Source: Desulforegulaceae bacterium (lineage in GTDB: Bacteria; Desulfobacterota; Desulfobacteria; Desulfobacterales; JACKCP01). From it: a stretch of 64,000 nt of DNA. Positions 48,844-51,553 of the stretch are shown here, in pieces. The stretch is taken from assembly GCA_034007295.1 (NCBI GenBank), contig JAVERC010000012.1, positions 5,329 through 69,328 of the forward strand, written 5' to 3'. The position numbers and the translations under genes are program-made. The notes below the pieces were generated by a model. It was not told the origin of the DNA, did no database searches, and saw only the letters and a program-made list of their open reading frames with translations. The first letter of the stretch is position 1. Each line of letters begins with the position of its first letter.

Positions 48844-50976
48844 ATGACAAATATTTTACTTACAACCTTTGGAACTTCATGGCAGATAATACCTGAACTA
48901 ATAGGTTTTACAAATCCAGAAACAATAAATTTTTACAAAAATCATAAAGATATTTTTAAAATTGAAGAAAAAAGAAAAAAATTCAACATAAAAAATATAA
49001 ATGAAATCTGGATGGTTGGAACCAGTGGGAATAAAACTATTAATTCATTAAAAAAAATTAATGAATGGTACAACAAGATAACAACAAAAAAGCCGGAGCT
49101 TAAAATCTGGTTTGTAAAAAATTCAGATGACCTGACTTCAGAATATGAATGCCGCCAAATGGCAGAAACCATTCACAGAGTCACCCTTCTTGCCTATGAA
49201 AAAACACAAGGCAAAAATCTTTTTCTTTCCCTTACCGGAGGAAGAAAAACCATGAGTTCAGATTTGCAAAATGCTGCATCTTTTTTTGGATGCAGTGCAA
49301 TGATTCATATTTTGGATAATTTTGAAGCTGCCAAAAATTTAAGGGATAAAAATACAAATTTTTTTCTATCCCCTCTTCCAAATGAATTCTCAGATGCCTT
49401 TTATCCGGTAATAACAGGACAATACAATAAAAACATGCTTCTTGATATTGAACCGGTTATTTCCTCAAAAGATTTTTCTATTCCTTATCCAGAAACTTTT
49501 AAACCTGTTTTTACTGAATTTGAAGAAAATAATTATCTTATAGATGAAATTGAAAAAAGAAAAAACAATGCATCAAACCTGGTTTTTAATTATAGTTCAA
49601 AACTTATTCAAGGGGAAAATCAGACAAATTTTCTTGCTCTTTACACCCTTCCTCCAAAAATTATAAATTTTTTAAAAAATTACAAAATCGGACAAAATAA
49701 AAATAATTTAACAAAAGATTATAATCTCATAAAAAAACTTCCAAAAACAGAACTCCACTGCCACCTTGGAGGAATTGCAGATGTTTTTGACCTTATTGAA
49801 ATTGCAAAAGAACTTGAAAATGAACTTTTGCATTTTAAAAGAGATTTGGATTCATTATTTGAACCTGCAAAAAAACTTATTAAAGAAAAAAATATTGAAG
49901 AATTAAAAGAAAAATATAGTCCAAAAAAAATCAGAACAATATTAAAAAATATTCCAGAGCCGTTTATTACAGCGGGATTTATTCTTCTTTTCAAAGATTT
50001 TCCGGATTTATTAGAAGATTTTATTTACCAGGATTTAAAATTTGAAAATAAATTTTTTGCAAAAAATTTTACTCCCTATGAAAAAATTGGTGATTTACAG
50101 GGCTCAGGCCTTCTTCAGCATGAAAAAACCTTAAAAAAAGCCTGTCAAATTTTAAAAACAAAGGCAGCAAATCATAATGTAAAATATCTTGAAGTCAGAT
50201 GCTCGCCACATAATTATACAAGAGGCGGAATGAGTCCTTTTCTTGTATATGAAACAATTGAAAATGAATTTAAAAACTTAAATGAAATTGAATCAGGAAT
50301 TATTTTCATTGGAAGCAGACACGGTGAAATGAGCAAAATTTACAGCCATGTTGAACTTGCTGAAAATATTACTGAAACAAATGAAAATACAATTTTAAGA
50401 GGATTTGACCTTGCAGGAGATGAAAAAGCAAAAAAACCCTCCAAAATAAGAGAAGCATTTTTGCCTTTAATGGAAAAATGCATGCATTTTACAATTCATG
50501 CAGGAGAAAACATGCCTGCAGAAAATATATGGGAAGCTGTTTATCACTTAAATGCTGAAAGAATTGGACACGGCCTTACTTTAAAAGACAATCCCTATCT
50601 TATGGAAAAATTTTTAAATTCCGGCACTGCTCTTGAAATGTGTCCTTCAAGCAATTTTCAAATTGTTGGATTCAGAGATTTTTTAATGGATGAAACAAAA
50701 AACCAGCAAATTTATCCTCTTAAATATTATCTTGATAAAGGTCTTAAAGTAACAATAAATACTGATAACCCTGGTATTTCAAGAACAAACTTTTCAAATG
50801 AAATTTTAAAAGCTTCCAAAATGACTGAAAACGGTCTATCCCTTTGGGAAATTTTTATTCTGATTCGAAACGGCTTTAAATCTGCATTTGCAGACAGGCA
50901 AATCAAAACAAAACTTATAAAAAATGCAGAAAATGAAATTTTAGATTTAATTTTAAAAGGTGATTTTAATGAGTAA
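48844..50976 (+). CDS. cad1: CARF domain - adenosine deaminase fusion (Cad1-like type III CRISPR ancillary effector)
   Basis: 710 aa. N-terminal ILLTTFGTSWQIIPEL and LTGGRKTMS are Cas_NE0113-type CARF hallmarks. The C-terminal half carries the full ADA motif set: LPKTELHCHLGG (H305/H307), FTIHAGE (H552/E555), ERIGHG (H576), CPSSN, TINTDNP (D641). Confidence 0.85.
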   Translation: MTNILLTTFGTSWQIIPELIGFTNPETINFYKNHKDIFKIEEKRKKFNIKNINEIWMVGTSGNKTINSLKKINEWYNKITTKKPELKIWFVKNSDDLTSEYECRQMAETIHRVTLLAYEKTQGKNLFLSLTGGRKTMSSDLQNAASFFGCSAMIHILDNFEAAKNLRDKNTNFFLSPLPNEFSDAFYPVITGQYNKNMLLDIEPVISSKDFSIPYPETFKPVFTEFEENNYLIDEIEKRKNNASNLVFNYSSKLIQGENQTNFLALYTLPPKIINFLKNYKIGQNKNNLTKDYNLIKKLPKTELHCHLGGIADVFDLIEIAKELENELLHFKRDLDSLFEPAKKLIKEKNIEELKEKYSPKKIRTILKNIPEPFITAGFILLFKDFPDLLEDFIYQDLKFENKFFAKNFTPYEKIGDLQGSGLLQHEKTLKKACQILKTKAANHNVKYLEVRCSPHNYTRGGMSPFLVYETIENEFKNLNEIESGIIFIGSRHGEMSKIYSHVELAENITETNENTILRGFDLAGDEKAKKPSKIREAFLPLMEKCMHFTIHAGENMPAENIWEAVYHLNAERIGHGLTLKDNPYLMEKFLNSGTALEMCPSSNFQIVGFRDFLMDETKNQQIYPLKYYLDKGLKVTINTDNPGISRTNFSNEILKASKMTENGLSLWEIFILIRNGFKSAFADRQIKTKLIKNAENEILDLILKGDFNE

Positions 50977-51553
50977 TGAAAAAGTATTGTGCATAAAAAA
51001 AGAAAATCTTCCAAATAAATGGATTGAAAAATATGTAAGTCTTAATCTTAATGAAAATGAATTTGAAAAAAAGATTAATTCTTTTGAAGTTATTTTTGAA
51101 TCAAGAAAACTTGCTGAAAAAAATTTTGAATTAAAACAGATAATTCCATATATTTTAATCCAGAATTCAAAAAAACACCTCACAGGAATCTACAAAAGAA
51201 AAGGAAGCGAAAAAAGGCTTGAAGACTTGTGGTCAGCAGGAATTGGAGGCCATATAAATAATTTTGACTGCAAAAAAACTGTATATGAAACAATAAAAAA
51301 CGGAATGCTTAGAGAACTTTCTGAAGAAATAATAAATTTACCAAAAAATTATTCAATTACCTTTTGCGGAATTATAAATGAAGAAAAAACAGAAGTTGGG
51401 AATGTTCACCTTGGAGCTGTTTATAAAATAATATCTGATGATACAAATGCTTTTTTACCAGGAGAGGAACTTGATTCATTTCAGTTTTACAATACATCAG
51501 ATTTAAAAAATCTTAATATGGAAATCTGGTCAGGACTTGCTTTGAAATTGTAA
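50969..51553 (+). CDS. Nudix hydrolase (COG4112/YmaB-like), translationally coupled to cad1
   Basis: GIGGHINNFDCKKTVYETIKNGMLRELSEEI contains the Nudix box E-x7-REL-x-EE. ATG 50969 overlaps the cad1 stop (50974-50976). Confidence 0.8.
   Translation: MSNEKVLCIKKENLPNKWIEKYVSLNLNENEFEKKINSFEVIFESRKLAEKNFELKQIIPYILIQNSKKHLTGIYKRKGSEKRLEDLWSAGIGGHINNFDCKKTVYETIKNGMLRELSEEIINLPKNYSITFCGIINEEKTEVGNVHLGAVYKIISDDTNAFLPGEELDSFQFYNTSDLKNLNMEIWSGLALKL

Follow-up and report, generated by a model that had tools for sequence, protein, structure and literature searches.

The locus described here raises the question of whether a CARF-adenosine deaminase gene and the Nudix hydrolase gene that overlaps its 3′ end form a single functional module of a nearby type III CRISPR-Cas system and, if so, what the second enzyme contributes. 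Both genes lie in a 64-kb (64,000 nt) stretch of Desulforegulaceae DNA, referred to below as the window. We consider it about 85% likely that they constitute a two-gene accessory effector of a type III-B system, in which cyclic oligoadenylate (cOA) would switch on conversion of ATP to ITP by the deaminase and the Nudix enzyme would convert ITP to IMP, causing growth arrest. Our analysis established the identity and fold of the two proteins and the intactness of their active sites, together with the conserved overlapping arrangement of their genes and the type III-B context.

The first gene (cad1/caad; 48844..50976, plus strand, ATG start) encodes 710 aa and was confirmed to specify a full-length CARF-adenosine deaminase (Cad1/CAAD). 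The PADLOC CARF5--CARF_ADA profile matched residues 3-703 (E=2e-212), Pfam A_deaminase (E=1.4e-43) and Cas_NE0113 (E=1.4e-8; 35.2 bits, cut-off 23) both scored above their cut-offs, and NCBIfam ADA and CARF families matched as well. A search with the single sequence recovered Cad1/CAAD chains in the PDB at E ~1e-51, and a profile search did so at 1e-94. An AF2 model (pLDDT 89.3) retrieved Cad1/CAAD structures as all of the top 30 Foldseek matches, with E-values down to 6e-35, and matched deaminase-only chains with TM ~0.8. The model comprises a CARF domain (approximately residues 1-195), a helical linker (~196-295) and a deaminase barrel (~296-704). These profile searches and the structure prediction, which the initial annotation had proposed as checks, agree with its description of a 710-aa CARF-adenosine deaminase fusion and with the motifs that it assigned.

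Those motifs comprise, in the CARF domain, ILLTTFGTSWQIIPEL at residues 4-19 and LTGGRKTMS at 130-138, whose GTSW and GGxK[TS][MI]S cores align with those of solved Cad1. In the deaminase domain they are H305/H307 (HxH), H552/E555 (HAGE), H576 (GHG) and D641-N642 (TDN). H305/H307, H552/E555, H576 and D641 do not vary within the subfamily to which the window Cad1 belongs and coincide with the corresponding residues of the solved proteins; N642, too, is almost always conserved in the subfamily. The initial annotation had read Asn in place of the second Asp of the usual TDD; the residue is correctly identified, but it is not a departure from the norm, as NTDN is present in five out of five solved Cad1/CAAD sequences. 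TDN as the mark of a dead deaminase was thus ruled out, and we do not regard it as a defect because the solved active Cad1/CAAD proteins all carry it.

A finer comparison is possible with TaqCAAD of Thermoanaerobaculum aquaticum, for which residues that are essential or contact ATP have been reported (PMC12993439); PDB entries 9ubl and 9ebt were taken to be this protein because their residue numbering fits that study. By alignment, H262, S319, H485 and D548 of TaqCAAD correspond to H307, S421, H576 and D641 of the window Cad1, and G314, S352, N355 and Y356 to G416, S454, N457 and Y458. G314, S319, S352, N355 and Y356 touch the ribose and phosphates of ATP and separate ATP deaminases from adenosine deaminases (PMC12993439). 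In the CARF domain, T10 corresponds to T11 and the ring-nuclease lysine K106 to K135. Judged from the alignment, the catalytic and ATP-contacting residues are all retained, as are all the deaminase residues shown to be essential by mutation in TaqCAAD and its ring-nuclease lysine. The position preceding the CARF lysine differs: Tyr105 of TaqCAAD, which is essential and stacks on cOA (PMC12993439), is replaced by Arg134, and this Arg is invariant in the subfamily. Among the solved Cad1/CAAD proteins the same position is occupied by Y, I or F, so it is not strictly defining for Cad1/CAAD.

The window Cad1 is approximately 100 residues longer than the solved Cad1/CAAD proteins, to which it is ~23% identical overall. 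Much of the difference lies in a subfamily-specific helical insertion of ~57 aa within residues 325-410, after the HxH strand, which neither solved Cad1 nor canonical ADA possesses. This long form (~700 aa) accounts for the majority of the Cad1 proteins that we retrieved, and a search for a solved structure of a ~700-aa Cad1 found none. With its 57-aa insertion and an Arg at the position of the cOA-stacking residue, the long-form Cad1 of the window may conceivably recognize another ligand or be regulated differently from the characterized short forms.

The second gene (50969..51553, plus strand) encodes a 194-aa protein, and its assignment as a Nudix-fold protein is solid despite a Pfam NUDIX score below threshold (E=0.047; 14.1 bits, cut-off 21.1). 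The sequence matched TM1382 (PDB 3e57) at E=1.5e-18, and the AF2 model (pLDDT 94.4) retrieved 3e57 as the best Foldseek match (TM 0.76-0.81), with further Nudix enzymes next in rank. The REx2EE Nudix box (R115-E116-x2-E119-E120) is intact and invariant in the family alignment. These data uphold the identification made in the initial annotation, and the overlap that it described is also confirmed: the ATG at 50969 precedes the Cad1 stop codon at 50974-50976, giving an 8-nt overlap (50969..50976, plus strand; ATGAGTAA) that suggests translational coupling. A Shine-Dalgarno-like AAGGTGA lies 5 nt upstream of this ATG. An earlier start is available at GTG 50960, yet a database protein (P0001) has exactly the 194-aa sequence that begins at the ATG.

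TM1382, the best match of the window Nudix in both sequence and structure, is uncharacterized. Bacillus subtilis YmaB presumably belongs to the same COG4112 group of Nudix phosphoesterases. Members of this TM1382/YmaB/COG4112 type share with the window Nudix a length of ~190-210 aa and an additional segment N-terminal to the Nudix fold; unlike the window Nudix, TM1382 and YmaB are not CRISPR-linked. The ymaB gene is part of the nrd operon, and its product has been linked to dNTP metabolism (PMC5960316).

We examined 80 Cad1 loci from other genomes, 73 of which had enough flanking DNA to be counted. In this count of how often a Nudix gene neighbors CARF-ADA genes, which the initial annotation had proposed, the same Nudix family adjoins Cad1 in 42 of the 73 loci, distributed over many phyla. 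In 40 of these 42 the Nudix gene lies directly downstream on the same strand, and in 32 of the 40 the two genes overlap. The overlap is 4 nt long in 17 loci and 8 nt long in 9, and has other lengths in the rest. The pair recurs with the same 8-nt overlap as in the window in a related MAG, where Cad1 shares 82% identity with the window protein. Cad1-Nudix is a widespread two-gene unit with overlapping start and stop codons.

The module is followed on the plus strand by an adaptation block, beginning with a CRISPR-linked TPR protein (52172..53506; PADLOC PDLC01172, E=2.2e-149, and Pfam TPR families) and a PrimPol/AEP "adaptation polymerase" of the CRISPR-associated primase-polymerase type (53517..55091; Pfam AEP-TOTE E=2.8e-44, PADLOC PrimPol E=3.5e-97). 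cas1 (55093..56127; Pfam Cas_Cas1 E=1e-79) and cas2 (56128..56406; Pfam CRISPR_Cas2 E=5.2e-21) come next, between the module and the cmr operon. This operon (57309-63911, minus strand) begins 5.8 kb downstream of the cad1-Nudix module, close to the ~6 kb first estimated. It consists of cmr6 (57309..58679; PADLOC Cmr6 E=8.4e-32, with the RAMP domain at residues 63-265 of 455 and a long C-terminal extension), cmr5 (58692..59084; Pfam Cas_Cmr5 E=7.7e-25), the RAMP gene cmr4 (59137..60087; Pfam RAMPs E=3.9e-23), cmr3 (60048..61217; Pfam Cas_Cmr3 E=4.6e-40), cas10/cmr2 (61207..62952) and cmr1 (62952..63911; PADLOC Cmr1 E=7.2e-22). Family searches and sequence inspection of the 581-aa Cas10 identified the GDGD and GGDD palm motifs; the sequence opens directly at the Cmr2_N segment, and no HD motif or HD domain was found in it, as the initial annotation had also described. 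With cmr1-6 in one operon and an HD-less GGDD Cas10, the locus is type III-B (Cmr), and its Cas10 is the presumed cOA synthase. The earlier view of Cad1 as the only candidate cOA sensor in the window also held, in that no second CARF protein was found among the ~45 window ORFs scanned, a scan that was not exhaustive for small ORFs.

For the ligand, substrates, oligomeric state and phenotype of the module we drew on published work on homologues. On binding of a target transcript by the Cmr complex, the HD-less Cas10, having both palm motifs, would make cyclic oligoadenylates. Cad1, probably as a hexamer, would bind cA4 and/or cA6 through its CARF domain, and binding would turn on the zinc-dependent deaminase domain and thereby conversion of ATP to ITP, by analogy with Cad1, which acts as a hexamer and makes ITP from ATP upon cA4/cA6 binding (PMC11645235). 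The coupled Nudix would then cleave ITP to IMP and pyrophosphate, so that the loss of ATP becomes irreversible, and would add to a growth arrest that would block phage propagation. The conserved CARF lysine K135 probably also confers ring-nuclease activity on cA4, ending the signal. The core of this scheme, in which cOA activates nucleotide deamination and the Nudix may hydrolyze the ITP product, had been put forward in the initial annotation and coincides with the published mechanism as cited: ATP to ITP by CAAD, ITP to IMP by Nudix hydrolases, and growth arrest (Li et al., Science 2025, cited in PMC13276650). Type III systems are likewise said to pair often "CAAD with a Nudix hydrolase" (PMC12993439).

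Three published systems bear on this analogy. Cad1 of Baca et al. (Cell 2024, PMC11645235; 9c67 and related entries) has the same CARF plus adenosine deaminase architecture as the window Cad1, shares the HxH, HAGE, GH and TDN set, matches its fold over the full length and also belongs to a type III locus. It differs from the window Cad1 in length (600 vs. 710 aa) and sequence (~23% identity), in lacking the ~57-aa insertion and extra CARF/linker segments, and in having GGIK where the window protein has GGRK; the hexamer-interface Trp of Cad1 (W349 in 9c67) aligns with a Phe. The host system in that study is type III-A, and the study makes no mention of a Nudix partner. TaqCAAD resembles the window Cad1 in its type III-B context (PMC12993439) but has another CARF effector, Csx1, as its partner; no second CARF effector was found among the ~45 window ORFs scanned.

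The CAAD and Nudix of Li et al. (doi 10.1126/science.adr0393; PDB 8z3k/8z3p/8z40) follow, as far as the work is cited, the two-gene logic seen in the window, although the window Cad1 is a long form, unlike that CAAD. A search of the protein database for 8z3k gave only relatives that are no more than 70% identical to it, many with truncated gene calls. The Nudix genes were compared through one of these loci, L085: its deaminase domain shares 68% identity with the 8z3k chain, and the gene that follows, of 222 aa, is recognized by the Nudix profile at E=6.7e-57. This indirect comparison would place the window Nudix, ~32% identical to that of L085, in the same family as the Nudix of the published CAAD. 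No Nudix was found directly downstream of cad1 in two other 8z3k relatives, L083 and L084; its place is taken in L083 by a Card1-type CARF gene and in L084 by an ORF of at least 252 aa with an LTGG motif that runs off the contig end. In L084 and L085 cad1 directly follows cmr6, whereas the window module adjoins adaptation genes and lies at a distance from a convergent cmr operon.

Two other readings of the Nudix have to be weighed against ATP depletion. The enzyme may act in type III signaling on a substrate other than, or besides, ITP, in a reset function rather than as an amplifier of ATP depletion: hydrolysis of ATP/dATP, clearance of linear or cyclic oligoadenylates, or ITP/dITP detoxification that protects host RNA/DNA and allows recovery. 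Members of the same family are fused to Card1 (Nudix-CARF_Card1-Card1 nuclease in P0449 and P0422), and P0449 is encoded directly after csm3-csm4-csm5 with no adjoining Cad1, although the contig (L090, 5.7 kb) is short and Cad1 may lie elsewhere in that locus. In further fusions the partner is an ADP-ribosylglycohydrolase or an SF1 helicase with TBP-TOTE, dNTP pyrophosphohydrolase activity has been reported for B. subtilis YmaB (PMC5960316), and the Nudix is missing from 31 of the 73 Cad1 loci, which indicates that Cad1 does not need it. That the Nudix start so closely overlaps the cad1 stop in 32 of the 40 downstream cases favors a function tied to the Cad1 product, and published biochemistry, as cited (PMC13276650, PMC12993439), assigns ITP to IMP conversion to CAAD-linked Nudix enzymes. 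We regard a different substrate or a reset role as unlikely.

It is very improbable that the Nudix is a host housekeeping sanitizer of the nucleotide pool that adjoins cad1 by chance and serves no specific purpose there. The family is large (246 representatives at E≤1e-30, 4542 at E≤1e-10). Its closest non-self members, at 45-51% identity, are stand-alone genes with housekeeping neighbors in each of the three cases checked, and P0012, P0013 and P0018 (48-51% identity), the nearest homologues beyond the immediate clade, are surrounded by unrelated metabolic genes. A crude neighbor-joining tree groups the window clade as sister to this stand-alone Desulfobacterales clade, but is too crude to show whether genes passed from stand-alone to Cad1-linked settings or the other way. 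Chance proximity, however, is hard to reconcile with adjacency in 42 of the 73 loci and in many phyla, nearly always in the same orientation with overlapping codons, with retention of the block in the related MAG, or with the existence of fusions to CARF effectors. A broader proposal, that the Nudix is a general accessory enzyme of type III signaling beyond clearing ITP for Cad1 and, separately, that the long-form Cad1 of the window has altered ligand specificity or regulation, appears to us rather unlikely; its first part was considered because of the fusion to the cA4-activated nuclease Card1 beside csm genes with no adjoining Cad1, the large stand-alone Desulfobacterales sister clade and the fusions to conflict-system helicase and ADP-ribosylglycohydrolase domains.

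The initial annotation had known of no functional work on this two-enzyme pairing and had ranked it as the most promising lead in the window. That assessment does not stand in view of Li et al. (2025), as cited: because the pairing has already been characterized experimentally elsewhere, the window locus is an ordinary new example. It adds an uncultured Desulforegulaceae to the described cOA-triggered ATP to ITP to IMP defense, and little beyond annotation. Of modest use is the placement of the partner Nudix in a wider family, whose other members include chromosomal genes that stand alone and proteins fused to Card1. The prevalence of the pair, the long form and the breadth of the Nudix family could inform structural studies of long-form Cad1 and assays of substrate range across the Nudix family.

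Searches of the 64 kb for a CRISPR array found none, and the CRISPR repeat of the related MAG was absent from the window with up to 3 mismatches allowed. In that MAG an array lies directly upstream of cad1; one belonging to the window locus may be situated past position 64000. In the DNA around the cad1-Nudix module, scans for promoters and terminators scored no better than in shuffled sequence. A 72-nt tandem repeat at 48041-48328 was considered as a degenerate CRISPR array because its unit length fits, and was rejected: similarity spans the whole unit, and the repeat lies in frame within an acidic ORF, where it encodes a 24-aa protein repeat.

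The 710-aa ORF at 48844-50976 (+) and the ORF that follows it are as the initial annotation had described them, with every quoted motif found at its residue, and the proposed identity of the first as a CARF-adenosine deaminase (Cad1, also CAAD) was confirmed by Pfam, PADLOC, PDB and Foldseek matches. Pfam A_deaminase (E=1.4e-43) and Cas_NE0113 (E=1.4e-8) each scored over the curated cut-off, and the PADLOC profile CARF5--CARF_ADA matched end to end (E=2e-212). The best PDB sequence matches were the five solved Cad1/CAAD proteins (9ebt/9ubl, 9c67, 8z3k/8z3p), with E ~1e-51 for the single sequence and 1e-88 to 1e-94 for a subfamily profile. 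Structure prediction of the fusion, which had been proposed as a check, gave an AlphaFold model with a mean pLDDT of 89.3 (25 homologues as input); its top 30 Foldseek matches in the PDB were all Cad1/CAAD chains, and deaminase-only chains matched at TM ~0.8.

Residue equivalences were obtained by mapping profile alignments of the solved chains onto the residues given for the Thermoanaerobaculum aquaticum protein, TaqCAAD (PMC12993439). Its essential residues H262, S319, H485 and D548 align with H307, S421, H576 and D641, its ATP-contacting G314, S352, N355 and Y356 with G416, S454, N457 and Y458, and its ring-nuclease residue Lys106 with K135, all of them invariant or nearly so across the subfamily. 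The TDN found in place of the usual TDD had been flagged as atypical. We ruled it out as a defect, as it is common to every solved Cad1/CAAD and is a hallmark of the family.

The second ORF (50969-51553, +; 194 aa) most plausibly starts at the ATG at 50969, which is preceded by an AAGGTGA motif and gives an 8-nt overlap with the end of cad1 (stop codon 50974-50976); a protein with exactly this sequence (P0001) is on record from a Desulforegulaceae MAG. The Pfam NUDIX match was under threshold (E=0.047), and searches with NCBIfam and PADLOC profiles gave no match. The ORF did match the putative Nudix hydrolase TM1382 (PDB 3e57; E=1.5e-18), and 3e57 (TM 0.76-0.81) was also the top Foldseek match of its model (pLDDT 94.4), ahead of numerous Nudix enzymes. 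Within the Nudix box, the REx2EE core does not vary across 22 homologues. JGI annotates homologues as "predicted NUDIX family phosphoesterase", a group that we take to be COG4112/YmaB.

We counted how often such a gene adjoins cad1, as the initial annotation had suggested, by scanning one genome per GTDB species (80 loci) and restricting the count to the 73 loci with at least 620 nt downstream. The same Nudix family adjoins cad1 in 42 of the 73, lying immediately downstream on the same strand in 40 and immediately upstream in 2, and the hosts include Desulfobacterota, Planctomycetota, Spirochaetota, Bacteroidota, Acidobacteriota, Cloacimonadota, Gammaproteobacteria and others. The co-translation inferred from the overlap in the window is supported, since the Nudix gene begins before cad1 ends in 32 of the 40 downstream loci (overlap of 4 nt, n=17; 8 nt, n=9; other, n=6). 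In a related MAG (L086), Cad1 is 82% identical and the 8-nt overlap is the same; the block there, ordered small ORF-cad1-Nudix-TPR-PrimPol-cas1-cas2-OMP, shares 80-85% DNA identity with 48634-57128 of the window.

The pairing is not new, and its description as unstudied was wrong: CAAD with Nudix is already reported by Li et al. (Science 2025), as cited in PMC13276650 and PMC12993439, with CAAD turning ATP into ITP, the Nudix taking ITP on to IMP, and growth arrest as the outcome. When the deaminase domain of PDB 8z3k, rebuilt from a printed alignment, was used to search for relatives, cad1 in one locus (L085; 68% identical) proved to be followed, after 50 nt, by a 222-aa gene. This gene matches our Nudix profile (E=6.7e-57), and the pair in the window is therefore of the published kind. 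[quoted passage not shown]

Two minor leads remain: where else the Nudix family occurs, and the long form of Cad1. The window Nudix is 95-98% identical to proteins of near-identical contigs, its next relatives are at 72% and 61%, and the following tier (45-51%) is a large Desulfobacterales group. All three members checked at 48-51% identity (P0012, P0013 and P0018/HRM2_18990, at loci L082, L088 and L081) stand alone, surrounded by metabolic genes with no relation to them. Since the closest homologues outside the immediate clade are stand-alone, the Cad1-linked Nudix belongs to a broader, partly housekeeping family. Cad1-linked Nudix proteins of other loci are just 24-42% identical to that of the window, and in a crude neighbour-joining tree the window clade, nested among Cad1-linked sequences, came out as sister to the stand-alone clade. 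A full-library profile search yielded 246 representatives at E<=1e-30 and 4542 at E<=1e-10, including fusions of Nudix to CARF_Card1 and Card1 nuclease (P0449, P0422), to SF1 helicase-TBP-TOTE (P0374) and to ADP-ribosylglycohydrolase (P0414). P0449 (L090, 3350-5056) directly follows csm3-csm4-csm5 with no adjacent Cad1 on its short 5.7-kb contig, which leaves a modest chance that the Nudix does more in type III signalling than clear ITP.

Whereas the solved Cad1/CAAD proteins have 600-635 aa, that of the window is longer by ~100 residues. Most of the excess lies between residue 325 and ~410, where profile alignments set 82-85 residues opposite 25-28 in the solved chains and the Pfam ADA model implies ~65 additional residues beyond the HxH strand; this segment is modelled as a confident helical bundle (pLDDT 89-96). 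Smaller extras occur in the CARF domain (residues 21-51) and the linker. Tyr105, indispensable for cOA (cyclic-oligoadenylate) stacking in TaqCAAD (PMC12993439), is replaced by an Arg (GGRK) that is invariant in the subfamily, at a position that varies among the solved proteins (Y, I, F), and Phe aligns with the Trp of the Cad1 hexamer interface. The long form is shared by nearly all of the 120 nearest homologues in the database and by most of the 80 loci; it is thus a common subfamily and not a local oddity, and we found no solved structure of it.

Housekeeping genes (38554-47188) lie upstream of the module. Downstream, a TPR protein gene starting at 52172 (PADLOC PDLC01172, E=2.2e-149) and a PrimPol/AEP-TOTE "adaptation polymerase" gene directly upstream of cas1-cas2 (PADLOC E=3.5e-97) form a block (52172-56406) that resembles a CRISPR-associated primase-polymerase adaptation module and is kept in L086 at 85% nt identity. 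An outer-membrane beta-barrel protein gene (56519-57121) follows cas2, and its position is kept in L086 despite the opposite orientation of the cmr operon there. Next, on the strand opposite to the module, is cmr6-5-4-3-cas10-cmr1. As initially described, Cas10 keeps GGDD and lacks an HD domain; it also keeps GDGD, has 581 aa and begins at the Cmr2_N segment. The cmr6 product (57309-58679, -) is unusually long at 455 aa, with a RAMP domain at residues ~63-265 and a C-terminal extension of ~190 aa without a family match. No second CARF protein was found among the ~45 window ORFs scanned. In L083 and L085, relatives of the published CAAD, a Card1-type CARF gene overlaps the stop of the preceding cad1 or Nudix gene, which fits the second CARF effector reported in most CAAD systems; the window showed none.

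No CRISPR array was found within the 64-kb window, the site immediately upstream of cad1 included. L086 has a 19-repeat array there (8322-9669; repeat GTCAGAAATTAGCCTCGCTTCGAGAGGATTAAGAC), whereas 47189-48843 of the window holds odd small ORFs. An acidic ORF (47984-48517) contains four 72-nt (24-aa) tandem repeats and is followed by a small basic ORF (48550-48765). DNA of the acidic ORF start and of the basic ORF C-terminal half matches L086 9778-9936 (85% nt identity), a ~150-nt region just upstream of cad1 that overlaps a called 52-aa gene; since both match one region, a repeat seems to have expanded, or an insertion to have occurred, in the window. Between the two copies of a ~150-nt direct repeat (47207-47357 and 47800-47945; 94-95% identical, ~590 nt apart) lies a 93-aa ORF (47374-47655) with a faint PD-(D/E)XK resemblance (PDDEXK_9, E=0.096). 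The ~530 nt between the Nudix and TPR genes (51554-52083) are missing from L086 and contain a 77-aa ORF (51626-51859, -) that matches no family and adjoins no partner toxin gene; by eye, it looks like a ribbon-helix-helix antitoxin. Elsewhere, an 873-aa AAA+-type protein (17409-20030) matches the PADLOC candidate-defence models PDC-M37B and DolB (E ~1e-29) and may simply be a Clp/Lon-like ATPase.
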